A program made the position numbers and the translations under genes. The notes under the pieces were generated by a model that saw nothing but the letters and a program-made list of their open reading frames with translations, did no database searches and was not told the DNA's origin. Below are positions 3,924-29,355 of a stretch of DNA of 39,537 nt, piece by piece (the first letter of the stretch is position 1; each line of letters begins with the position of its first letter). The DNA comes from a virus: the UHGV virus genome UHGV-0134280, one strand, 5' to 3'.

Positions 3924-3950
3924 CCCGCAAAATATTGCGGGCTTTTTTTT
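3924..3950. terminator. Hairpin cccgcaa/ttgcggg with 8-T run at the 3' end of the tailspike gene
   Basis: Stem-loop 3924-3941; the T-run is on the plus strand and overlaps the tailspike stop codon, so the transcript it terminates is unclear. Confidence 0.4.
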
Positions 3951-6900
3951 AACGTTCTTCCAGAGACTGAATCCGCTCTTTTATCTTATCCATTTCTCTG
4001 CGCTGCCATGCTGCCTCGATATAGAATAAGAGATCAGGTCTGACCCCCCATCTAGATCCTGCTGGCGTTATTTCAACGCGCTCAATGATGTCTTCCATTA
4101 CCATCACTGGATTATCATCCTCATCAACAATGATGCTCCCGTCATTATCAGTCAGCGGAATTTCCCTTTGGCCAGTAATGACGTCATCATATACTGCGGG
4201 ATAATCGTCATAGCAAAGAAAGGCATAGCGGCATGTTGTGCTTTCTTCTTCCATGAGTCCGTGAGAAATAAGAACATCACGAAGTTGCTGCGCGATTACA
4301 CCATGATGTATCCTCGCCCCTTCTTCTCCCTTTATAGCGACAGCGTTCAGCCATTTATAAGCGATATACCTGACGTCACCCCAGGCATCCAGCAATGCTT
4401 CGTCAGGAGAGACCGGCTCTGTCTTTAATGTTCCGTCACTGGTAACCACAGGATTGGAGCCAAGATAAACTGTCGAGAACCTGTTTCCCGGACCACCAAG
4501 AGCATTTACATTATCAAGATAAGGTTTAACATCTCCGTTCTCAAAAAGATGTTCGAGTGCGTTATATACCGCGCGACGTGGAGTACTGCTTCCGGAACCA
4601 TGCAACGTTATCATTGCACCATCTGCTGAAGACGTTGTTTCACCGCCGCTAACGATTAATCTCTGAGCGGTAACATCATCAGACGGTACTTTCTTCGCAA
4701 TAATGGCGTAATTGCCCTCCAGTTTGACTTCCGCGCGAACTTGTCCTGATGTACCTGCATGGACAGTCAGTGACTGGACGGCAACATCATCTGTGAAATC
4801 AACGGGTACAGGAACCGTCCTCACGCCGGACGTCGACATAAAAGTAGGAAGCGTTCTGTTAGGAGTGGCTCCGTAGACAAAATCCCTTGAAACAAATTCT
4901 TCCTGTTTAATTTTCACCCTGAAACAATACAAATCAGCCGGGTGACCATCGTGAACATAAGGATATTTTCTGTTGTTATCCCCTATGCTCCATGGGTTTA
5001 GAAAGTCTTCCCCACCGAAAATGTAGTACAGCCAGTTGTCTTTGATACAAACTGAACCAACACCAACCGCAGAGTTAACTATTCCGCCCTGATAAATCTG
5101 ATCAGTAACATTAACCCACTCTACATTATCCAGACTCCACTCATTGACGTTAACTCTGGTCATAAATGTTCTTGGATAATTTCCTGCATAACGATTATCA
5201 GGTTCCCCTCCTTCCCACTCACCAAATGCGCGCTCACTGCCAAAAATAACCAGCTCATCGCCAACTTTGGCAAAAGGAAGGTTTGAGTGATGAACATTAT
5301 TTGGGAAGCGAAGAGAATTCCATGATGCACCTAAATCAGAGCTTCTGTGCAATGAACTACCAGGTTGAGTACTTAATGTCCCCCTGGTCGTCAGATACAG
5401 AATGCCATCATAATATTTTACACATGGCTCAGATGCATTCGCCTCATATTCTGCAGGTATGCGTCTGCGAACAAAGCTACCAGGAGAACCGAAAGCATCA
5501 GAGAAATAGAGTATCCCAAGCTCGCGTGGACCAATATCACCATTATGGTAGCCAACAGCAAAACTGTTATCGCTAATCGTCGCAAAACTGTGAATCTCAG
5601 TAACAGGAGTGCTTCCGTCAACAAAAGAAGGAATAGTTCCAAGACTGGTTTTTCTCCATGGTGACGAGTGAAATGATGTACCAAAACTCCAGTATCTACC
5701 CTCGTTATTCTGATCCACATCCTGAGTATTTTGCGTCGTAACTGTAAAAGTATTTTTATCAATAACAGTAGTCACCGTCATATTCCCGGTAACACCTGTA
5801 ACACCAGAGTTTGAGAAGTTGACAAAATCACCAGCAAATAATCCGTGATCAGTAATGCGAATATAAGCGACTTGCTGATTTGCTGCTTTCGTTATACCAC
5901 CATAAACGCGAAGGCTGCGACTCATTGGACGATCCCACAACTCTGCAACCTGCAGTTTATTTCCGCTCACGGTCCGCGTCTCAATTACAGCAAAAAGGCG
6001 ATTTCTGACAACCCCCATACTCATGCAGTGATAGTTAACTGTGGGATAGTTTTCATGTAAATCTGTAAGCCATTCCGGCGTTGTCCAGGTCTTCCCGTCA
6101 TCTCCTGAGCGAACCCATGCAACATGGAGGTTATTTACACCATGGCGGTCTCCAGCCATAAAAGGCGCATAGATGACATTGTCATATACAAACGTTTTAT
6201 CCTGCGTCCAGGCGTTGTACCACGGTGTATCTGTAATTTTAAATAACTCTCCCTGGATAAAATCTTCAGAAGCATAAAAAAGAGGCTGACCCGGTATTCT
6301 CTCAAATAAAAAACGAGCATTTTTAAATCGGCTGACATCCGGAAGAGTTGATACTTTAAAAGTAAGCCCTAATCCGTCAATTTTATAACCTGGAGATGAG
6401 GCTTCAAGGCACGCGCTTATTGCAGTGGAATCGTCATTTATACCATCACCAACAGCTCCAAAATCTTTGGGGCTAATAGCATCACGCATTTTATCCTGGA
6501 ACGTTCGGTATACTGCCCCAGAACCATACTGAATAAACCAACCAAAACCACCAACAACCCCGGCGATTGCAGCATCGACATAATTACGCATTGAGCGATT
6601 ATTTACAGCGTCCTGTTCAAGTGATGGATCTGCAAGGTTAGAAATTCTGTTTTGCTTTGCATCGTAATATTTTGCAAGCAAAGATGGTTTCATCAATGCA
6701 CGTCTGAACCATCCAAAACATTGCTGGATCAGCATCGTCAGGTAGTCAAAGGCATCTTCATGCACTTCGGGGAAAAACTTTCCCTGATTGCGAAGGTCTG
6801 TCTCCTGCACTACATCAAGCACACGATCTATCGTAATTCGCCAGCCAGCAGCAAGCGGCGACGGAAGAACAACAGAACCGCCACTATAAGTGCCCGCCCC

Positions 6901-7068
6901 AGTTACCGTATAACCGGTATCCAGAACCAATTCTGTTACGTTCCCGTTCAGGTCAGACACCTGAACAACCAGGTCGGATTTTTTGAAAATACGGAAGGTA
7001 TACGGAAATGATGTCGTAGCGCCGTTACCGGTGTATTCGTTGTGGTCAACTTCGGTTGAGACCGTCAT
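3949..7068 (-). CDS. Tailspike/tail fibre: T7 gp17-like N-terminal anchor, sialidase-type beta-propeller with Asp-boxes, C-terminal intramolecular chaperone (peptidase S74-like)
   Basis: N-terminal pattern resembles the T7 fibre anchor; Asp-boxes SGDDGKTW and SSDLGASW; C-terminal about 160 aa carries SDGTLK...YKW...GVIAQQL typical of auto-cleaving chaperone domains. Confidence 0.75.
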   Translation of the reverse strand: MTVSTEVDHNEYTGNGATTSFPYTFRIFKKSDLVVQVSDLNGNVTELVLDTGYTVTGAGTYSGGSVVLPSPLAAGWRITIDRVLDVVQETDLRNQGKFFPEVHEDAFDYLTMLIQQCFGWFRRALMKPSLLAKYYDAKQNRISNLADPSLEQDAVNNRSMRNYVDAAIAGVVGGFGWFIQYGSGAVYRTFQDKMRDAISPKDFGAVGDGINDDSTAISACLEASSPGYKIDGLGLTFKVSTLPDVSRFKNARFLFERIPGQPLFYASEDFIQGELFKITDTPWYNAWTQDKTFVYDNVIYAPFMAGDRHGVNNLHVAWVRSGDDGKTWTTPEWLTDLHENYPTVNYHCMSMGVVRNRLFAVIETRTVSGNKLQVAELWDRPMSRSLRVYGGITKAANQQVAYIRITDHGLFAGDFVNFSNSGVTGVTGNMTVTTVIDKNTFTVTTQNTQDVDQNNEGRYWSFGTSFHSSPWRKTSLGTIPSFVDGSTPVTEIHSFATISDNSFAVGYHNGDIGPRELGILYFSDAFGSPGSFVRRRIPAEYEANASEPCVKYYDGILYLTTRGTLSTQPGSSLHRSSDLGASWNSLRFPNNVHHSNLPFAKVGDELVIFGSERAFGEWEGGEPDNRYAGNYPRTFMTRVNVNEWSLDNVEWVNVTDQIYQGGIVNSAVGVGSVCIKDNWLYYIFGGEDFLNPWSIGDNNRKYPYVHDGHPADLYCFRVKIKQEEFVSRDFVYGATPNRTLPTFMSTSGVRTVPVPVDFTDDVAVQSLTVHAGTSGQVRAEVKLEGNYAIIAKKVPSDDVTAQRLIVSGGETTSSADGAMITLHGSGSSTPRRAVYNALEHLFENGDVKPYLDNVNALGGPGNRFSTVYLGSNPVVTSDGTLKTEPVSPDEALLDAWGDVRYIAYKWLNAVAIKGEEGARIHHGVIAQQLRDVLISHGLMEEESTTCRYAFLCYDDYPAVYDDVITGQREIPLTDNDGSIIVDEDDNPVMVMEDIIERVEITPAGSRWGVRPDLLFYIEAAWQRREMDKIKERIQSLEER

Positions 7069-7171: not shown

Positions 7172-7188
7172 ATTACCTTTCAGGTAAT
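7172..7188. promoter_or_regulatory. 17-bp palindrome ATTACC-TTTCA-GGTAAT (site A, perfect)
   Basis: Read directly; in the divergent region between tailspike and the KilAC gene; an extra half-site ATTACCT lies at 7122-7128. Confidence 0.6.
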
Positions 7189-8291: not shown

Positions 8292-8308
8292 ATTACCTTA
8301 AAGGTAAT
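8292..8308. promoter_or_regulatory. 17-bp palindrome ATTACC-TTAAA-GGTAAT (site B, perfect)
   Basis: Read directly; immediately upstream of the RBS of the 7544..8272 gene. Confidence 0.6.
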
Positions 8309-8401: not shown

Positions 8402-8667
8402 TTTACATCGCACTCCTCTTGTGCCATAGTAATCGGGCACTGGCAAAATCCAGTGCCGGGATTGGTCTCCCGGATTACTACAGAGGCACATATGCCGCAT
8501 AAGCGGTTTTTTTATGTGTAAAGCGCACCTATTCTATGGTGGGCTGTGTGGGGGCACCGAAAGGTGCGCCGGGTTCCTTTGTAGCCGGTAAGACCAACTC
8601 TGCACAGTTCACCACCATCTGATTGGTCTCAGCGGTGGTGATTAACCTAACTACAAAGGTGATCGCC

Positions 8668-21630: not shown

Positions 21631-22068
21631 TTAACCAGTTACTTTTGAGCGGATCGGATACGGCGTATTAGCATCAACATCAAGACTGATACCAGCAGTG
21701 AATTCGCCAGCCGTTAGTGGGCCAGTTGCGACGGAGTAGTTAACACGCAGATATCGCTGAACACCGGCAGGCACCTTTGCAGAAACAACTCGTTTACCTG
21801 CTGTCAGGGTGGTCTTTGCCAGTGCACCACTATCATAAATAGTGGTCCATGAGCTGTTATCCTCACTCGTCTGCAACTGGATGTTTACAGTTGCATCACC
21901 GCTTGCTGCGGCGGCTGTGTTAACCAGCGCCCAAAACTCAAGCGGGTAACCCACGCCGATATCACGACGTTTTCCGTCAATTGGACCGAGATCGATTACG
22001 TCAGTAGAAGCCGCGGTATCAGTTACCGCCTGTGCTTCGGAGAACATCAACAGTTTGTCGGTGATCAT
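21631..22068 (-). CDS. Possible capsid decoration/minor capsid protein
   Basis: 145 aa, Thr/Ala/Val-rich, immediately after the major capsid gene. Confidence 0.35.
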   Translation of the reverse strand: MITDKLLMFSEAQAVTDTAASTDVIDLGPIDGKRRDIGVGYPLEFWALVNTAAAASGDATVNIQLQTSEDNSSWTTIYDSGALAKTTLTAGKRVVSAKVPAGVQRYLRVNYSVATGPLTAGEFTAGISLDVDANTPYPIRSKVTG

Positions 22069-22119
22069 CTTCTTTCTCCATTAGTGGGTCTGTTACGACC
22101 CACAGGTTAATAACAGGCG

Positions 22120-23112
22120 TTACACCACGCGGGCTTCTGTTTCCAGAAGCGCATCAGTTTCACGGATTGGTACACCACGGAATGACGTCCACCACTCGCC
22201 TTCAGTCTCTTTTACGCTAATCGCCAGAGATGTTTTCTCCAGAGACTGCAAATCAAGAGCCTGGCCTACAGTGCGGTTCATGTAGAACACCGGGCGACCC
22301 ATGCCACGGTTTGGAATGCGATGCAGTGCTTTAACCATCAACTTCGCAATATTTGCGGCAGAGGAAGGTTCTGAAAGATTGCTGACATCGATGTTTGCAA
22401 TGCGAACAACATAACGCCAGTCACGCAGAGCAAGTCCGTTATCCCATTTGTAATGGGTACGGTAGCCTTCGTACTTGCCGCCATTAGCATCTTCCAGTGT
22501 CACCTGGCCTTTATCTTCCATCTGAATGCCAGCCTTCTGCCCTTTCGGGAAGATGCCATGCACGGTGTTTTCGCCCCACACCACTAACCAGATTGAGGTG
22601 TTATCTGTACCCGTGCCACCAGCATCAATGATGTTCTGAGCATTACCTGCAGACAGGCTGGAATAGCGGGAGGACAGTCCCATAAACTGCTGAGGGTTAA
22701 CGCTGGAATCACCATAAAACAGCGTCTGCGCCATCTGCTGATTCATCGCTTCAATAAATGCGCGGTCTTCAGACAGGCGGAATTCGGCGGTATTTCCGTT
22801 CAGATCAGCCAGTGACTTATCGACTTCAGCATAGGTTTCCAGCATGCCAACGGAATCGGTTACCTGCACTGTGGTTGATTTGCTTGGCTGTACGCCATAG
22901 TTCAGCAAACGCCAGGTAGCTGAAGGTAAACCAGAACGAATGGTGGTTCGGTGTCCGGTAGGAAGGTTCCCTTCGACAAAAGGCATATCCTGAAGGATCG
23001 GGTTAGTTTGACCGAGAAGCTCGATAATCTTATCGACTTTCCCGTTTGGATCGACGCGCTTACCCCAGTCAGCCAGCGTTAGCGCAGTTAAGCCTTTAAC
23101 AGTCATTGTCAT
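22120..23112 (-). CDS. Major capsid protein
   Basis: 330 aa directly downstream of the scaffold gene; size and position as in T7 gene 10. Confidence 0.7.
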   Translation of the reverse strand: MTMTVKGLTALTLADWGKRVDPNGKVDKIIELLGQTNPILQDMPFVEGNLPTGHRTTIRSGLPSATWRLLNYGVQPSKSTTVQVTDSVGMLETYAEVDKSLADLNGNTAEFRLSEDRAFIEAMNQQMAQTLFYGDSSVNPQQFMGLSSRYSSLSAGNAQNIIDAGGTGTDNTSIWLVVWGENTVHGIFPKGQKAGIQMEDKGQVTLEDANGGKYEGYRTHYKWDNGLALRDWRYVVRIANIDVSNLSEPSSAANIAKLMVKALHRIPNRGMGRPVFYMNRTVGQALDLQSLEKTSLAISVKETEGEWWTSFRGVPIRETDALLETEARVV

Positions 23113-23120
23113 TTCCTCTC

Positions 23121-23822
23121 TTATTTGCCATAGAGCACTTCGGCCGCACTACGCTGGCCTTCATTACCACCGGTGACCATGCCATCTTCAGACATCGCCT
23201 TTCCGATTTTCACGAACGTTTTGACCAGATCAGGGTGATTACCCAGCCCGGTGGTCTTCAGATATTCTTTGAGTTCAGGTGTCCCGAACTGGTCAAGCGC
23301 ACGCTGTGCAGCGCTAAGGTTAGAAATCAACTTGTCGCCACCGATTTCTTTGTCAGCTTTTACATCCGCAGCCCACTGCTCGGTTGTTTTCTGCCAGGCT
23401 TCTGCCTGGCGCTGCTGAACACCTGCCAGAATCTTCGGATAAGCATCAACCAGCTTTTGCGCTTGCTCGTTGGTCAGGTTAAGTTCTCGCGCCACCGGCT
23501 CGAATTCCTTCAACGCTTCTGTATCCAGCTCTACGCCTTCGGCAGCCTGAAACTCGTACTTCTCAGGCGCACCCTCTGGTTTATCGCCGTCCTTTTTTTC
23601 ACCCTGCTTATCGTTTTCAGGCTTTTTGTCATCAGCAGGTTTATCGCCATCAGCAACAGGTTGTGGCTTATCACCTTCCTGTTGTGATGGATCACCAACT
23701 GGAGCAGGGTTATCACCTGCAGGCGCTGACGGTTCTGACGCAGCCGGAGCTGCTCCACCATCGACTGGTTGCTCATTGCAAAGACGGCGATACAGCAAAC
23801 GCTCAAATAAATTCATGATCAC
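23121..23822 (-). CDS. Scaffolding protein
   Basis: 233 aa, acidic, Pro/Asp/Lys-rich low-complexity N-terminal half; between portal and capsid genes. Confidence 0.6.
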   Translation of the reverse strand: MIMNLFERLLYRRLCNEQPVDGGAAPAASEPSAPAGDNPAPVGDPSQQEGDKPQPVADGDKPADDKKPENDKQGEKKDGDKPEGAPEKYEFQAAEGVELDTEALKEFEPVARELNLTNEQAQKLVDAYPKILAGVQQRQAEAWQKTTEQWAADVKADKEIGGDKLISNLSAAQRALDQFGTPELKEYLKTTGLGNHPDLVKTFVKIGKAMSEDGMVTGGNEGQRSAAEVLYGK

Positions 23823-24115
23823 TCCTGTTCACTGGCCTCTTTGGCCATCTTCAAATACTGTTCAGGGCAATGCGCCATAACGCGCTGAAACAGTTCCAGC
23901 GCCAGATTGCGTTGCCCCTCATTAAATGCCATTGCCATAGCGTCCATCGGTGAGATAGCGGAAAACACACGGCCTTTCTCCAGCACCGACCAGACAACTC
24001 GACGCCCCTGTTCACTGCTCATGACAAAGCGAATGTCATCAATTTCACGCTGTGCCATGTCACGTTGCTTACGGGCGTTTTCTTCTTTCAGTTGATCGTC
24101 TTCGTAATCTGTCAT
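23819..24115 (-). CDS. Small acidic protein between portal and scaffold
   Basis: 98 aa, overlapping stop/start with both neighbours. Confidence 0.35.
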   Translation of the reverse strand: MTDYEDDQLKEENARKQRDMAQREIDDIRFVMSSEQGRRVVWSVLEKGRVFSAISPMDAMAMAFNEGQRNLALELFQRVMAHCPEQYLKMAKEASEQE

Positions 24116-25791
24116 TGTGATTGCCCACCCTGACCACTAACTGCATTCGCCATAGCTGACAAAACACTCGGATCCGAAGTTTTAGCTTCGCTTAGCGTCT
24201 TGACACCCTGTGCCGCCGCCATCCCCATCGCCATCATTTGTTGCTGCTGTTGTTGCTGTGCCCGTTGCTGGCGAGCCTGCTCAACCTGTTCCTGAGGAAC
24301 AATGACGGTTGGAGACACTCCGGACATATCAGCGAATGCATCGATCGCCTGATCAACGTTGAGTTTGTCGAGAGCTTCTGGTTTCGCTTGCGCAAGTTGA
24401 CCAATGAAGTTGACCGTGGACGCCAGACTGGACAGGCCGATAGACTTCTGCGCCTGAGCCATGACGGAAATGTATTCGACCTTCAGGGGCATACCTTCCA
24501 TCACGTCTGGCGGTGGCGGCAGCATGTTTTTACGAACCATCATCGAGAAAGCGCGGTCAATGAGAGGATTAAGACATTCGTCGTTCAGACGCTCCAGAAC
24601 CGGCCCCAACATCAGAAGTTTTTCTTCTTTCATTTCGATCACCGCTTCAACAGGCATCGAGCGGGTATTGATGTTCTGCAACATCATGAACAGATCGACA
24701 AAGTAGGCGCTGTTAATGATTTGGCGGGTGTCCTGAATGTCTGCTACCAGATCTGCTGTACTGGGGTTAACCAGATAAGCAGGCCTGAAACCATCCTGAC
24801 CAGTAATCTGATCGATATACGTGATGTCGCCAGGAAGAAGGGAGGCGCGCTGATTCTTGAGGGAAGTCGGAGCAACCATCGGCGGATTGGTGGCTTTATC
24901 AATCAACTGCGACTTGCGCTTCTGGAGAAGCTGCAATGCCTTAACAGGTCCAAGCGCCAGCATACCAGGGCATGATGATCCATAAACATCTTCGCCGTTA
25001 ACTTCCCAGCGCGGAGCCATAATTGGAAACTCATCGAATCCGGACTCACGCAACAACTTGTCGTTATCGCCACCAACCTCGTAATAAACCGATTTGAATG
25101 GCTTGTTCTTGCTATCCAGCTTCGATGTATCGCGGTCAATGTTCGGGTAAACCGAATGCATCACTTCAATCCACTTCTCGTAGGTGCCGCTTTCCCACAT
25201 GCTTTTTACGGATTCGCTGACGTTATTTAGCCCGAACTCCTGAACAAGCTGACGAACAGTCATAGAGAACTTGCGAAAACAGGTGTCCACACTGCCACGA
25301 GGTGAGTTAGCCAGGTAGTAACTGCCTATCGGGAATGGCATTGTGCGAATGATGTCCTCGTCATCCTCCAGCACCGCCATTGCACCAGTGCTGTATGTGC
25401 CTAGGCTTCCGTATAACTGCGGAAGAGACTGATAGAGATTCGACTTATTGAACATATCGTTCATGCGGTTCTGCACCGCCTCAAGCCACAACTTAACAGG
25501 GCCATAATCCATCATTTCAGGATCTGGCGTAGCCAGGCGAAACCACGGACGCGCGGGGCTTGTGATGCCTGACATCATGCCGCTGGCGAGAGTGCGCGCC
25601 GCCATTGTCCCGGTCGAATCAATAATGCGTGTATTGCGTCGATCGTTACGGTTGACCTCAGAAGTCAGAAAGCGGGAACCACGCGGGTTGATGTAATCAC
25701 TCAACTCGCGCCAGTGCGGCTCGAACGACTGACGCTCGCTTTCAAGTTGTGCGAACTGTTTGTTCAATCGCTCTTTAGTTGTTTCCGCCAT
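24112..25791 (-). CDS. Portal protein (T7 gp8-like)
   Basis: 559 aa; Gln/Ala/Met-rich C-terminal tail like T7 gp8; GGAG RBS; follows the terminase genes. Confidence 0.75.
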   Translation of the reverse strand: MAETTKERLNKQFAQLESERQSFEPHWRELSDYINPRGSRFLTSEVNRNDRRNTRIIDSTGTMAARTLASGMMSGITSPARPWFRLATPDPEMMDYGPVKLWLEAVQNRMNDMFNKSNLYQSLPQLYGSLGTYSTGAMAVLEDDEDIIRTMPFPIGSYYLANSPRGSVDTCFRKFSMTVRQLVQEFGLNNVSESVKSMWESGTYEKWIEVMHSVYPNIDRDTSKLDSKNKPFKSVYYEVGGDNDKLLRESGFDEFPIMAPRWEVNGEDVYGSSCPGMLALGPVKALQLLQKRKSQLIDKATNPPMVAPTSLKNQRASLLPGDITYIDQITGQDGFRPAYLVNPSTADLVADIQDTRQIINSAYFVDLFMMLQNINTRSMPVEAVIEMKEEKLLMLGPVLERLNDECLNPLIDRAFSMMVRKNMLPPPPDVMEGMPLKVEYISVMAQAQKSIGLSSLASTVNFIGQLAQAKPEALDKLNVDQAIDAFADMSGVSPTVIVPQEQVEQARQQRAQQQQQQQMMAMGMAAAQGVKTLSEAKTSDPSVLSAMANAVSGQGGQSQ

Positions 25792-25805
25792 TTCAATGAC
25801 TCCGG

Positions 25806-26012
25806 TTACTGACCAAGCAGCGTTTTACCGCTGGTATTAGCAGTTGATGTGTCGCCCTGAGAACCGGTAAGCAGCGTAGAACTACGACCAGCAGCAGCGC
25901 GACGGCGACGAGTTTCTTCGTCGCGGGCATCAACAACGGCGGCATCCTGCTCCTGTGGTGCTGCCTGAACTTCTGGTGTTGCAGGCACTGATGGTGAGCT
26001 ACCCATGCACAT
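25806..26012 (-). CDS. Small Ala/Pro/Arg-rich protein upstream of portal
   Basis: 68 aa, GGAG RBS 8 nt upstream; function unknown. Confidence 0.35.
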   Translation of the reverse strand: MCMGSSPSVPATPEVQAAPQEQDAAVVDARDEETRRRRAAAGRSSTLLTGSQGDTSTANTSGKTLLGQ

Positions 26013-26101
26013 ATCAATGACTCCGTACGCAATTAAATTATTACCAATTTAACCACATATGATTTATTTATCGTAGACGGTTGACATTTAACGCGTGAAT
26101 T

Positions 26102-26118
26102 ATTACCTTTCAGGTAAC
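26102..26118. promoter_or_regulatory. 17-bp palindrome ATTACC-TTTCA-GGTAAc (site E)
   Basis: Read directly; about 16 bp after a TTGACA hexamer at 26081-26086; upstream of the tRNA island. Confidence 0.5.
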
Positions 26119-26439
26119 CAAAGAGTTCATTCCGGTTACTAACCTGACTGGCTTGTCGTTAAATTGAACAGGTGGAGTGAGCTTTTATTTTGAGCAGTAC
26201 GGCGTATGGCACATGCGCCGATAGCGGTCTGGATACGTTTAAGGGGCACCCTCCCTTGCTCGGGCAAACGAACCAGGTAGCCGGAATGTGCAAGTCGAGC
26301 GGTTTTATTCCGCGCACGGGGATTCACCATCCAGGCGATTCGGTGTGACACCTCGGAAGAGACGAGGGTACAACGATGAGAGCATTTATGGAGCCGCGAC
26401 AAAGTGTGGCGCCTTAACAGGCTAAGTGCTCTCAGCGTT

Positions 26440-26516
26440 GTGGCATTAGCTCAGCTGGACAGAGCAACCGCCTTCTAAGCGGTTGGTCGCAGGTTCGAAT
26501 CCTGCATGCCACGCCA
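26440..26516 (+). tRNA. tRNA-Arg (anticodon UCU)
   Basis: Cloverleaf folded by hand: 7-bp acceptor stem GTGGCAT/ATGCCAC, D-arm, anticodon loop CTTCTAA, T-loop TTCGAAT, discriminator G and encoded CCA. Confidence 0.85.
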
Positions 26517-26714
26517 GAATCACACCTAAGGACCGTGATGCCAGAAGTTCCAGGGGCTTGGCGGTGATGGTTTCCCTTGAAGGACTATCACCGCCCTTTT
26601 TACAGCAGGACGCCATTGCGATGACTTCATGCTGTAAACCCGTACAGCCACGGAAGGCAGAACCCATTGCTTCCAGTTCGCCCGGTTCGCCGGGCATTTT
26701 TTTAAGGTGAGATT

Positions 26715-27086
26715 ATGAACGACCAGCAAATCGAAAAAGAAATCGTTGAGAAAGGCAAAACTGCTCCGCGCGTTACGCCAGACCATATCGAAAGCATTAT
26801 TGCTCAGGAGGCATATTTCACAGCAGAGGATGGTGCCTTTGGCAAAGCCATAAAAGAGAAACATACTGGCGGAGAGGTAAACTACCAGCCGCACGAATCA
26901 CTTTCTCTGCTGACGTTCTGCGTCCTGGTGCTGCGCAACGGCTTCACCGTCACCGGAGTGAGCGCCTGTGCAAGCCCGGAAAACTTTGATGCAGAAATTG
27001 GTCGGAAGATTGCCCGGCAGAATGCTGTAAACAAAATCTGGATGCTTGAAGGTTACTTGCTGAAGCAGAAGTTAAGCGAGCAATAA
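26715..27086 (+). CDS. Small phage protein, possibly N4 gp49 / Sf6 gp66 family
   Basis: 123 aa with AAGGTGAG RBS on the strand opposite the structural genes; family assignment from memory only. Confidence 0.4.
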   Translation: MNDQQIEKEIVEKGKTAPRVTPDHIESIIAQEAYFTAEDGAFGKAIKEKHTGGEVNYQPHESLSLLTFCVLVLRNGFTVTGVSACASPENFDAEIGRKIARQNAVNKIWMLEGYLLKQKLSEQ

Positions 27087-27090
27087 CACC

Positions 27091-27102
27091 GTGACATGTC
27101 AC
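27091..27102. repeat. 12-bp perfect palindrome GTGACATGTCAC (copy 2)
   Basis: Read directly; 5 bp after the stop of 26715..27086 and next to the terminator hairpin downstream of the large terminase gene. Confidence 0.7.
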
Positions 27103-27104
27103 AA

Positions 27105-27134
27105 ACAGCCAGCCTACGAGCTGGCTTTGTTTTA
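27105..27134. terminator. Terminator hairpin agccagc/gctggct with T-tract
   Basis: 7-bp stem, 6-nt loop, TTGTTTT downstream on plus and an A-run on the other side; between convergent genes. Confidence 0.5.
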
Positions 27135-27176
27135 TCCTCACCAGAGGATATCAACGACATTATCCCCACCAGCGGA

Positions 27177-28652
27177 TTAAGCATAGGGATCGTAATCTGT
27201 AATGGCCTTGCCTTGCTGGTTCTGCTGACCTGGAATTCGCAGACGCTTCGACACAGGGAAAGCAAACGTCAGCAATAGCGCATCGCCTTTACCAGGAGAA
27301 CGCCCAAGCCGCTCCTTGATATCTTCCTTCGGTTCGATAACGATTTTACCGTCCACTCGAACTTTGTACTCTGCCGCCGACAGGTCGTCCGCTGTTTCCT
27401 GGTCATCAAGCATGCCGCCCAGCCTCAGCCATGTCTTGCATGAGTTGAACATCTCCCCGCGCTTATTGAGCATCTGCGGGTCAGTAGACGCGCCACCGAA
27501 CGGAACAAGTTGCCATGTACGACCCCAGCCGTCACCGATTGACTTCAGACCAGTTCCGTAACCGAAGTCGATGAACACTGCGTCAGCCTGGTACTGGTCT
27601 TCAAAGTCAGCGATACGCTTCGCCATAATCAGATCGTCAGTAGTCTTGTTGCCAGTCCACAGCACCTTACTGTGCAGCCCCTGCCGCAGGTATATCACCG
27701 CGTCATCAACGCCTGAGTATGCCGGGTCAACGCCGATTATCACCGGAGCATGTGCAACCTGCGCAGCGGTTACCACCCGTTTCATTGCCTCATCAGTAAG
27801 ACCGGTAGGGATAAACTGCAATTCAGATGCATCAGGGAATATGCCGCGCACACGGATTTTAACGAAGTCGCTGTCTTCCCCGTAGTCATCAACCCATTTC
27901 TGCAACTGCTGTTTGTTAGTGCCTTCCACCGTCCGGCTGTCAATCTGCGCAGTTTTCCAGCGGTGTTTATATTTGCGGAAACATTCGCGGAAACGCCCGG
28001 TGTTACGTGTAGGGTTTCCGAACGCCACCCAGATAATCTCAGTGTCTTCGTCCGTAAGCGCACCCTCGGCAACTTCCCACACCAGATCGGCAATGTTGGA
28101 TGCTTCGTCGAATACCACGATGATGCGTTTGCGCTCGTTGTGTAGTCCGGCGAATGCCTCAGTGTTGTGCTCAGACCAGGGGATTGCGTCAGCTCGCCAC
28201 CGCTTGTCGTGCCCAGGATCATTGCTGTACATCGCGGTAGCGGTACAGGTAAACCAGTCTTTCGTGATAGCAAGGTTCGACCACTTGATAATTTCCGGCC
28301 AGGTCTTCGTTCGTAGCTGGTTGTCGGTGTTGGCGGTCACCACGACCTTACAATCCTCGCAAGTGGACATGCCCCAGTTGATCAGCATTGAGATGAATGC
28401 GGATTTACCAATACCGTGACCAGAAGCGCGTGCCAGCATAAGCGGCTGATAACGCGTCTCTGGATTCTGCAGGTGATCACGTATCTCTCGGAACGCATCG
28501 GCCTGCCACTGACGTGGACCGGTAGCATGTGCCAGTTCAGTCCCCTCTTCCCCCCAAGGGAACGCATAGAGGGCATAGCCAAGCGGATCGTGAGTGAACC
28601 CTGCAATATCCTCGATCAACTGCTCTTCAGGAGATAACGCTGTATCTGTCAC
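27177..28652 (-). CDS. Terminase large subunit
   Basis: 491 aa; Walker A-like GHGIGKS near the N-terminus; overlapping stop/start with the small subunit gene. Confidence 0.85.
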   Translation of the reverse strand: MTDTALSPEEQLIEDIAGFTHDPLGYALYAFPWGEEGTELAHATGPRQWQADAFREIRDHLQNPETRYQPLMLARASGHGIGKSAFISMLINWGMSTCEDCKVVVTANTDNQLRTKTWPEIIKWSNLAITKDWFTCTATAMYSNDPGHDKRWRADAIPWSEHNTEAFAGLHNERKRIIVVFDEASNIADLVWEVAEGALTDEDTEIIWVAFGNPTRNTGRFRECFRKYKHRWKTAQIDSRTVEGTNKQQLQKWVDDYGEDSDFVKIRVRGIFPDASELQFIPTGLTDEAMKRVVTAAQVAHAPVIIGVDPAYSGVDDAVIYLRQGLHSKVLWTGNKTTDDLIMAKRIADFEDQYQADAVFIDFGYGTGLKSIGDGWGRTWQLVPFGGASTDPQMLNKRGEMFNSCKTWLRLGGMLDDQETADDLSAAEYKVRVDGKIVIEPKEDIKERLGRSPGKGDALLLTFAFPVSKRLRIPGQQNQQGKAITDYDPYA

Positions 28653-29245
28653 TGATTACCATCCTGACGTTCTTTGAGTCGCTTCCTGGCTGCTGCTATG
28701 CGATCAGCAATTGTCACATTCACATTAACATCCAGACGTTCTTTGAACGCGTTGACATCAACATGCTTACCAATCAGCTCAAGGTTCTTCACCTTGTCAG
28801 GCCATTTAATTTTTTTGAGGATTGTCTCTATCGAATCCTCGTTCATGTTCATGATGGTCGATGACAGATCAAAGCCACTAAGCGTAGTGCGCCAGATTTT
28901 CGGCCACTCACGGATTGGTTTAAGGCTCCCATCGTCGTTGAGGATATCGATCACGTCCATCTGGTCGATCTCCACCAGGCGCATGAGAACGTAATCAGCA
29001 CTGACGCGCATTCGTTTGTTGCGCTCCTCCATCAACTCGGCAATCCGTTTTTGAATGCGTTCATCGCGCATCATGACACTGGCTTTAACTGCCGCTGTAT
29101 TTGGGGAGAATCCTGCGTTAATCGCAGCCTGAGTCTGGTTTTCAGGCGTTTTGATGTATGACTGGCAATAAGCCTCCTGCATTGCTGTGAGCGGCTTAAA
29201 TTGCGTTGATTTGCGTTTATAGGTTTTAGGTTCAGCAGGCATCAT
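28649..29245 (-). CDS. Terminase small subunit
   Basis: HTH-like segment QAAINAGFSPNTAA; start trimmed to ATGATG with GGTGG RBS because the track extension to 29323 runs through a terminator hairpin. Confidence 0.65.
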   Translation of the reverse strand: MMPAEPKTYKRKSTQFKPLTAMQEAYCQSYIKTPENQTQAAINAGFSPNTAAVKASVMMRDERIQKRIAELMEERNKRMRVSADYVLMRLVEIDQMDVIDILNDDGSLKPIREWPKIWRTTLSGFDLSSTIMNMNEDSIETILKKIKWPDKVKNLELIGKHVDVNAFKERLDVNVNVTIADRIAAARKRLKERQDGNQ

Positions 29246-29261
29246 AACCACCCTGGTAATT

Positions 29262-29278
29262 GTTACCGTTGTGGTAAT
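29262..29278. promoter_or_regulatory. 17-bp palindrome gTTACC-GTTGT-GGTAAT (site J) with an extra GGTAAT half-site at 29255-29260
   Basis: Read directly; between the terminator at 29286-29314 and the small terminase RBS. Confidence 0.5.
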
Positions 29279-29285
29279 AGTACCA

Positions 29286-29314
29286 TGCAAAATAAAGCCG
29301 CCATAGTTGGCGGC
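29286..29314 (-). terminator. Rho-independent terminator gccgcca/tggcggc upstream of the terminase genes
   Basis: 7-bp GC stem with 4-nt loop; on the minus-strand transcript it is followed by UUUAUUUUG. Confidence 0.55.
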
Positions 29315-29355
29315 AGTATTCAAAACCCATCAAATTCATCATGCATAATCTACTC

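Follow-up and report, generated by a model that had tools for sequence, protein, structure and literature searches.

The plus-strand island at 26013-27134 of UHGV virus genome UHGV-0134280, a viral DNA of 39,537 nucleotides (nt) analysed here at its full length (hereafter, the window), holds a gene for a structured RNA: we conclude with high confidence that positions 26193-26439 are an RNA gene of a family absent from Rfam 15 and from GenBank/RefSeq annotation. That this family exists we hold to be nearly certain. The element was recognised as an RNA gene because its helices covary, no reading frame is conserved across it, its homologues change in length by steps other than triplets, and its folding is biased to one strand. 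An original prediction, made from the letters of this DNA, had described 26120-26439 as some 300 bp of unexplained non-coding sequence with no convincing open reading frame (ORF) or cloverleaf, perhaps a leader, a degenerate tRNA or a small RNA. Non-coding it proved to be, as its frames are not kept in homologues, but it can no longer be called unexplained, being conserved and structured far beyond chance; the degenerate tRNA falls away, and a multi-helix, pseudoknotted RNA of ~250 nt exceeds a leader or a small RNA.

Homologues of the element are widespread in phages of enterobacteria. In sensitive blastn searches, positions 26199-26443 were ~82% identical to non-coding DNA of the lambdoid phages cdtI, mEp460 and many Shiga toxin (Stx2c/Stx2a) phages, and ~80% identical to DNA of P1, P7, D6, SJ46 and RCS47. 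A 23-nt pattern from the most conserved part found at least 120 IMG/VR loci, and the lambdoid copy was present at ≥80% coverage in 1454 of 5426 complete E. coli genomes, on chromosomes as well as on P1-like plasmids. A covariance model (R1), built from an alignment of 25 non-redundant homologues, gave a single, full-length match in the window (147 bits, E=1e-44); since the window sequence is part of the R1 seed, this match arises by construction, and the independent support comes from the blastn homology and the covariation. Full-length R1 matches were likewise obtained at 44 other places, some of them in Kosakonia, in an epsilon15-like phage of Klebsiella and in phages listed under Stenotrophomonas. 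When genome contigs were scanned with the 14-mer CCGGAATGTGCAAG, 119 of 120 among the matches listed were chance and one was real (Kosakonia sacchari); because this pattern is too short, the range outside phages of Enterobacteriaceae is poorly sampled. As sampled, the family belongs to phages of Enterobacteriaceae and a few neighbours, so some of the invariance described below may reflect shallow divergence, though the helices vary enough to covary.

None of these copies corresponds to a catalogued RNA. Rfam 15, run over the whole window at gathering score, matched only the tRNA; relaxing the threshold to E≤10 over the island and over the cdtI copy again returned the tRNA only, the other best matches (E≥2) being unrelated eukaryotic families, and six further loci gave no family match for the RNA. 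In the E. coli records listed, no annotated feature lies over the RNA copy, the adjacent tRNA-Arg aside. We found no description of the RNA in Rfam 15, in the annotation of ~1700 E. coli and 88 phage records, or in open-access full text searched by sequence and topic; an earlier description is possible, most subscription journals lying outside the literature searched.

Neither is the element a coding sequence, known or otherwise conserved: no frame is open across the core in all 25 homologues on either strand, and helix lengths differ among the homologues by non-multiples of three. ORFs annotated over the RNA region or the tRNA in phiV10, mEp460 and Ayreon are spurious. Other identities were tried and set aside. 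ARAGORN finds no degenerate tRNA or transfer-messenger RNA (tmRNA) at 26120-26439, and a 9-codon ORF in the P6 insert, considered as a tmRNA-like tag, is not conserved in other members. Genes for tRNA-Ile(CAU) and tRNA-Arg are known hosts of group I introns; such an intron was rejected here, with no Rfam match and with the tRNAs intact and outside the element. The Pas small RNAs and the UG27 non-coding RNA arrays of recent preprints are unrelated.

The RNA has at least seven helices and a pseudoknot. We derived this structure by hand from compensatory changes, using a MAFFT alignment, not fitted to structure, of 25 sequences less than 93% identical to each other. Its parts in the window are as follows.

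26193-26373, plus strand: structured-RNA core, supported by covariation and the R1 match
26200-08 / 26212-20, plus strand: helix P1, a hairpin
26225-28 / 26280-83, plus strand: J helix (CGGU/GCCG), enclosing P2 and P2a
26229-32 / 26273-76, plus strand: P2
26235-39 / 26267-71, plus strand: P2a, with a variable tip
26277-95, plus strand: invariant segment GGUAGCCGGAAUGUGCAAG
26294-96 / 26334-36, plus strand: P3b (GUC/GGC), closing a three-way junction that carries P3 and P4
~26299-26313, plus strand: variable P3 hairpin
26320-23 / 26329-32, plus strand: P4
26325-28 / 26342-45, plus strand: pseudoknot of the P4 loop CACC with GGUG
26351-55 / 26363-67, plus strand: P5, with the conserved loop GAAGAGA
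26371-84 / 26427-40, plus strand: P6, a 14-bp closing stem round a hypervariable insert (z = -6.0)

In the 25-sequence alignment, 94.4% of the cells at the proposed pairs held standard pairs, compared with 33-41% when the 3' partners were slid by 1-3 columns; both sides had changed at 16 pairs (85 cells), and the covariation score was reached by none of 500 column shuffles. A 44-sequence alignment gave similar values (94.1% paired; 17 pairs and 141 cells double-changed), this one having been fitted to the model and thus leaning towards the structure. Compensation is seen in helix P1 (CGGCG/CGCCG to CGGCA/UGCCG), P2 (CUGG/CCAG to CCAC/GUGG), P4 (GGAU/AUCC to ACGC/GCGU) and P5 (CCUCG/CGAGG to GCCGG/CCGGC), as well as in the pseudoknot, where CACC/GGUG becomes AACC/GGUU in lambdoid copies. 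The P6 stem forms, with compensated stems, in 27 of 36 distinct family variants. Some 60 positions never vary; they are mostly unpaired and fall largely in junctions and loops. Against shuffled controls, the plus strand folds with z = -3.4, versus z = -2.5 for the minus strand. The fold of this RNA family is under selection. A second pseudoknot is possible, between the helix P1 loop GCACAU and AUGUGC at 26286-91; both hexamers are invariant, so covariation neither supports nor refutes it, but it would explain why the inner pair of helix P1 is broken in phage-P1-type copies while the hexamers stay fixed.

Downstream, the RNA runs directly into a tRNA and then into terminators, which occupy the following positions.

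26440-26516, plus strand: tRNA-Arg with anticodon UCU and an encoded CCA at 26514-26516
26519-26539, plus strand: small post-tRNA hairpin AUCAC...GUGAU, conserved in other carriers of the module
26560-26601, plus strand: intrinsic terminator T1, a 14-bp stem and a U-run (hairpin and T-run at 26560-26595)
26680-26702, plus strand: intrinsic terminator T2 (hairpin and T-run at 26680-26695), whose epsilon15 homologue is annotated as a rho-independent terminator
27107-27126, no strand assigned: terminator hairpin T3, where the Acb4-like gene and terL converge; the phiV10 annotation also has a terminator here

The tRNA-Arg(UCU) that the original prediction had called is genuine: ARAGORN reports it as the one tRNA in the whole window (anticodon tct at position 35; no tmRNA), the Rfam tRNA model RF00005 scores it at 71.7 bits against a gathering score of 29, and RefSeq and GenBank relatives annotate a tRNA-Arg at the same site. 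The two hairpin and T-run elements that had been noted between the tRNA and the downstream gene correspond to T1 and T2, and T3 adds a third. Epsilon15-like and lambdoid carriers have homologous T1 sequences (CUUGGCGG...CCGCCCUUUUU), from which we assign T1 to the RNA module, a membership that the original prediction had not noticed; a self-contained RNA gene would be expected to bring its own terminator. The outermost pair of P6, C26371-G26440, takes in nucleotide 1 of the tRNA, which brings P6 right up against the acceptor stem.

At the P6/tRNA junction stands the motif GUUGUGG, which is kept even in copies without a tRNA. There it opens a domain of 80-160 nt closed by the acceptor stem GUGGUG/CACCAC, with a D-arm-like hairpin (GCGC-AGGCUGAU-GCGC) and, adjoining the 3' acceptor strand, a hairpin that covaries (CCGG/CCGG, CUGG/CCAG, CCGGG/CCCGG, GGUGG/CCACC); one such domain has a canonical T-loop, GCAUG-UUCGAUU-CAUGC. 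On these structural grounds we call the domain tRNA-like. Among the matches listed for 120 IMG/VR and reference extracts, 26 have tRNA-Arg(UCU) after the RNA and 56 have a tRNA-like domain there, while in 17 phage-P1-type copies a tRNA with anticodon CAU (tRNA-Ile2 in the P1 annotation) lies 15 nt before it. Linkage to a tRNA, or to a domain that resembles one, is almost universal in the family.

The variable parts of the module were found to hold further material. A second whole core lies ~800 nt away from the first in one locus (L021, 3994-4159 and 4801-4964), and extra tandem P5-P6-GUGG units occur in L009, L067, L090 and L097. In cdtI, a P6-like hairpin ending in GUUUUGUGG stands after the terminator, just before the first early-left gene (L005 2913-2995). 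A stretch of ~47 nt in the tRNA-like domain of L065, L092 and L097 (e.g., L097 3971-4017) matches small-subunit rRNA models with E=2.5e-7; this stretch, AGCUAGAUGGUGAGGUAAUGGCUCACCAUGGCGACGA, is a putative 16S rRNA hairpin, possibly helix 11. The P6 inserts of L097 and L008 hold pieces resembling a tRNA T-arm; fragments or mimics of stable RNAs seem to gather in the variable slots. In epsilon15 (L003 1782-1960), helix P1 and the start of P2 are kept, after which the sequence jumps into the T1 loop; UUCCCUUGAUGCU, common to the P2 tip and the T1 loop of relatives, is the likely recombination point of this deletion.

Upstream of the RNA, the island carries regulatory signals and a leader hairpin.

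26081-26117, plus strand: predicted early promoter with operator, -35 TTGACA at 26081-26086 and a weak -10, TACCTT, 17 nt downstream, inside the operator
26103-26117, plus strand: putative repressor-operator palindrome TTACCTTTCAGGTAA, a repeated motif with an annotated homologue in epsilon15
26121-26186, plus strand: long leader hairpin P0, found by alignment with relatives; a proposed RNase III-type punctuation stem

A consensus scan did not call the promoter at 26081; we place it there because of its sequence and its conservation in epsilon15, Klebsiella and IMG/VR relatives. The operator-like site, already remarked on in the original prediction, is well founded: TTACC-N5-GGTAA matches the window 14 times at ≤1 mismatch, where 0.68 would be expected, and ten of these matches are exact (7173, 8293, 8386, 9434, 26103, 29263, 32616, 34947, 35659 and 35721). 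The 15-mer at 7173 is identical to the operator at 26103-26117, and further copies lie just upstream of terS and, twice, of the isrK/C4 RNAs. In the GenBank record of epsilon15, the homologous site is annotated as a repressor-binding site overlapping a site for integration host factor (IHF). Recurring at several promoters of the window's phage, the palindrome has the features of a dispersed repressor operator, and its ten scattered exact copies suggest a regime similar to that of C1 in phage P1, in which many dispersed operons would be under repressor control. P0 lies upstream of the core in epsilon15-like phages; its stem sequence resembles P6 of other members (AAAGCGCAC...GUGCGCUU), and the epsilon15 record marks the homologous stretch as 'RNaseIII mRNA processing'.

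A comparable arrangement recurs elsewhere. In the window, the operator palindrome overlaps the -10 of the promoter ahead of the RNA. In phage P1, the ban operon, under C1 control, contains the RNA 15 nt downstream of trnI; the record's annotation has operator Op72 overlapping the ban promoters. In cdtI, the RNA follows the cI terminator and then a TTGACA-16-CATAAT promoter (11/12 matches) overlapped by a 20-mer, ATGTACCCTTGAGATACATA, which has three relatives in the cI-cro intergenic region; by its sequence, this promoter and site are the predicted left operator and promoter (OL/PL). mEp460, Stx2a_1447 and BUCT708 share the cdtI arrangement. As read from sequence, then, the RNA sits behind a predicted operator-bearing promoter in three unrelated phage types, and expression early in lytic growth with silence in the lysogen is a well-supported expectation. 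Phage P1 keeps the core without P6, tRNA-like domain or terminator, which argues that the core has a function of its own. Separately, in phage P1 (L004 ~2725-2772), a Shine-Dalgarno sequence and a 14-codon ORF (MPIISDIQHAWVEC) lie between the RNA core and ban, and its stop codon shares bases with the annotated start of ban (TAATG), an overlap suggesting that ban is coupled in translation to a leader peptide.

We propose, at a probability of roughly 45%, that the RNA is processed from an early lytic transcript and acts in trans, possibly in counter-defence. RNase P would cut at 26439/26440, freeing the RNA from the primary transcript and setting its 3' end. RNase P recognises a tRNA by its acceptor and T-arm half; because a tRNA needs this cut, and because the tRNA-like domains keep the acceptor/T-arm half, RNase P would set the 3' end in all members. 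RNase III may cut the long P0 and P6 stems and trim the RNA further. The resulting compact RNA of ~250 nt would then act in trans early in lytic growth, probably by binding a host or defence factor tied to tRNA biology, as one of a set of counter-defence and take-over functions. That the core functions autonomously is argued by the terminator within the module, the bare core of phage P1, the non-decoding mimic beside the lambdoid core and the ~60 invariant positions; a role in take-over or counter-defence is suggested, by guilt of association, by the neighbours (tRNAs, Acb4-family and Tad2-like genes) and by the early timing.

Several points weigh against this proposal. We infer both the processing sites and the action in trans from sequence; P0 has an unexceptional folding energy (z = -1.6), weak if judged by energy alone, and the tRNA-like domain of cdtI was not recognised by the Rfam tRNA model. 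A search of the remaining phage sequence for complementarity of ≥12 nt to the RNA found none, which leaves no evident antisense target. The RNA is also dispensable in the laboratory, for epsilon15 has lost the core, the tRNA-Arg and the 5' arm of T1, and CRISPR interference (CRISPRi) on the flanking P1 genes trnI and ban caused no plating defect (PMC10695390). Finally, in lambdoid carriers, the module and its terminator lie between the left promoter and the early-left genes, with a first downstream ORF that is not N-like; a terminator ahead of these genes means that read-through is needed there, which favours an RNA acting in cis.

Such an RNA could be a processive antiterminator like put of phage HK022, the nascent, folded transcript remaining attached to RNA polymerase so that it reads through T1, T2 and downstream terminators; the Acb4-like gene here, and in lambdoid carriers the entire early-left operon, would be turned on in this way. 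We consider this, the main rival, rather unlikely, although it has a precedent in HK022, where antitermination by RNA alone operates at this very position (PMC9378689). In cdtI, mEp460, Stx2a_1447 and BUCT708, the element is the first to be transcribed from the promoter on the cI side, followed by the terminator and the early-left genes, with no N-like protein; the Acb4-like gene, with T2 abutting its ribosome-binding site, needs read-through as well; and the epsilon15 deletion took the 5' arm of T1 along with the core. However, the RNA is unlike put (~70 nt, two stem-loops) in sequence, size and architecture, R1 found no match in HK022 22000-29000 (the put sites are unannotated and were not located in that record), and the lambdoid loci hold no second copy on the cro (PR) side. 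A terminator that travels within the mobile module is odd for such a role, the conserved tRNA-like domain is left unexplained, and epsilon15 keeps T2 and the gene without the core. The P6 3' strand UGCUCUUU does resemble the start of boxA (GCTCTCAGCGT at 26428-26438 in the window, GCTCTTTCCGT in other members), but it fails the gamma-proteobacterial consensus GYTCTTTAANA (PMC5725501), and a reading of P5/P6 as boxA with boxB and boxC-like parts was dropped for that reason.

Action in cis could also be more modest, the RNA being a precursor scaffold that only helps to fold, process or stabilise the adjacent tRNA or tRNA-like RNA and is then degraded. The fusion of RNA and tRNA, with P6 stacked on the acceptor stem and sharing G26440, the recurrent adjacency to tRNAs and the tRNA fragments inside the P6 inserts of L097 and L008 all fit a scaffold, yet ~60 invariant, mostly unpaired nucleotides and two proposed pseudoknots exceed what a leader needs, the lambdoid core sits beside a tRNA-like domain that cannot decode, and the phage P1 core has no tRNA downstream; we regard this reading as quite improbable. 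Less probable still is a riboswitch-like sensor, in which the core would bind a small molecule or ion and set termination at T1 and T2: the aptamer-like size, the pseudoknots, the invariant junction nucleotides and the terminators downstream would suit it, but a whole tRNA or a tRNA-like domain of ~100 nt separates core and terminator, no alternative pairing of P6 with the terminator was found, phage P1 copies lack a terminator, and the downstream genes are unrelated across carriers. We give least credence to the idea that there is no RNA gene at all, and that the stretch is instead the remains of a tRNA array or of a protein-coding gene, or serves at the DNA level in recombination, replication or packaging. 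The element does occupy different genomic slots in different phages, like a mobile DNA cassette, its inserts hold tRNA and 16S rRNA fragments, and GenBank places hypothetical ORFs over it in mEp460 and Ayreon; against this, compensation in the helices is strand-specific, with G-U pairs among the changes, folding is better on the plus strand, the orientation is always that of the flanking promoter, tRNA and terminator, and no frame is conserved.

Codon usage provides some indication of a decoding role for the tRNA. ORFs in the window contain 90 AGA codons in 11,850 (7.6 per 1000), a few-fold more than in E. coli, where published tables give roughly 2-3 per 1000. They are concentrated in the 1039-amino-acid ORF at 3949-7068, which has sixteen, and in internal and early genes; counts of 4-8 are found in several more of the large minus-strand ORFs and in ORFs to either side of the structural block, and the genes for head, portal and terminase (21631-29323) have no AGA at all. 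Codon-usage compensation, which the original prediction had put forward for this tRNA, is therefore plausible at 7.6 AGA per 1000, but not as the sole reading, counter-defence also being possible: phage tRNAs are documented as counter-measures to tRNA-cleaving defences (bioRxiv 10.1101/2023.03.15.532788).

Over the island, the DNA shares 95.7% identity with Escherichia phage phiV10 and 98% with many E. coli prophages, which identifies the window as an epsilon15/phiV10-like (Uetakevirus) prophage. The protein-coding genes on and around the island are listed below.

24112-25791, minus strand: portal gene (PF12236)
25806-26012, minus strand: gp3-like ORF of 68 amino acids
26715-27086, plus strand: gene for an Acb4-family protein of 123 amino acids, a predicted cyclic-dinucleotide sponge (PF13876 Phage_gp49_66, E=7e-35)
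27177-28652, minus strand: terL
28649-29323, minus strand: terS

The island thus lies on the plus strand between terL and the gp3-like ORF, opposite to the minus-strand late operon and between terminase and portal genes, as had been described. It is best explained as a single transcription unit of the early, repressor-controlled kind, in the order operator/promoter, P0, the ~250-nt structured RNA, tRNA-Arg(UCU), T1, T2, the Acb4-family gene and T3.

The last gene of this unit had been noticed as a small gp49-like gene, its Acb4 membership going unseen. Its match to PF13876 scores 119.8 bits against a cut-off of 27 and covers the whole profile, while the match of the protein to the solved chain of SPO1 Acb4 (9e4w) is weak (E=0.004 over 42 residues). 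SPO1 Acb4, the founder of PF13876, is a cyclic-dinucleotide sponge that blocks the cyclic-oligonucleotide-based anti-phage signalling system (CBASS), and all eight Acb4 homologues tested bound 3'3'-cyclic GMP-AMP (3'3'-cGAMP) (PMC11722364). The T-run of T2 directly abuts the Shine-Dalgarno sequence of the gene, so transcription would reach the gene only by read-through. In the same slot, a Klebsiella relative has a Tad2-like (PF11195) protein, and other relatives have a conserved, unrelated protein of 142-144 amino acids without a Pfam match; Pfam searches with five further downstream cargo proteins gave no matches. Examples of the slot are L248 3178-3699, the downstream ORFs of L008, L054 and L067, and 26715-27086 of the window. 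The slot behind the RNA-tRNA module is thus a variable cargo position, filled by predicted counter-defence genes in at least two cases, and the 142-144-amino-acid protein is a candidate new counter-defence gene.

With its three terminators, the plus-strand island (26013-27134) separates the minus-strand terS-terL block from gp3 and the portal gene. Because the late genes are split in this way, late transcription must begin anew within 26013-26080 or else pass antisense through the genes for the tRNA and the RNA; within that interval, 26030-26075 is nearly invariant among relatives. Elsewhere in the window, at 8437-8619, an isrK RNA (74.7 bits) adjoins a C4 antisense RNA (78.6 bits). This pairing is that of the immI region of P1 and P7, here in an epsilon15-like podovirus prophage; the operator palindromes at 8293 and 8386 stand just upstream of it, and the same RNA pair occurs in the lambdoid locus L017.

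By context, the closest known systems are GOLLD and ROOL, complex pseudoknotted prophage RNAs that often lie beside tRNAs, are probably cotranscribed with them and have no known function (PMC5737381). The RNA described here shares their prophage location next to tRNA genes. It belongs to neither family, being about a third of their size (~250 nt versus 580-800 nt) and having no Rfam match even at E≤10; GOLLD and ROOL come from Firmicutes or from rumen and lake metagenomes, whereas this RNA resides in enterobacterial phages and has a defined repressor-controlled early promoter and is fused to a tRNA or to a domain like one. In terms of placement within lambdoid genomes, it comes nearest to putL and putR of HK022, without being a member of that family either; these are structured RNAs just downstream of an early promoter, the left one in the case compared here, in lambdoid phages without N and with terminators following (PMC9378689); the window's phage is itself not lambdoid. 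Whereas put RNA is ~70 nt long, has two stem-loops and stands in both early operons (PMC9378689), the present RNA has a 180-nt multi-helix core plus P6, lies on the left side only, also occurs in non-lambdoid phages and shows no sequence similarity to put. Its 3' end formation, with long P0 and P6 stems and a unit that RNase P may cleave, bears a resemblance, and only that, to rrn operons and MALAT1-mascRNA, in which a stable RNA is flanked by long processing stems and RNase P-cut tRNA or tRNA-like units. Nothing about the remaining components, namely tRNA, operator logic and Acb4-family gene, departs from known kinds; the window protein shares PF13876 with the Acb4 sponge, but its match to the solved SPO1 protein is weak and its ligand binding is predicted.

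Taken together, these results turn a vague non-coding stretch into a specific and apparently undescribed RNA class of model phages, and the annotation of the island should read operator and promoter, non-coding RNA, tRNA-Arg, terminators and Acb4-family gene. More tentatively, we suggest that phages as different as P1, Stx-converting and other lambdoid phages and epsilon15-like phages share a new, ornate class of RNA that works with no dedicated protein, either as an RNA-only modifier of polymerase (an antiterminator far larger than put) or as a tRNA-linked decoy or inhibitor of a defence or tRNA-directed enzyme, with modular hairpin slots that take up tRNA and 16S pieces. If true, a complex pseudoknotted RNA, present in roughly 30% of complete E. 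coli genomes, has been overlooked in some of the phages studied most closely, namely P1, the Shiga-toxin phages and the phiV10 group used for O157 typing. Carried by phages and hosts amenable to genetics, the family is a tractable, contextual relative of the unexplained, tRNA-linked GOLLD and ROOL RNAs. Its position, behind repressor-controlled promoters, fused to tRNAs and next to Acb4- and Tad2-like genes, makes it a candidate RNA in phage take-over or counter-defence, or else a second kind of RNA-only antiterminator.

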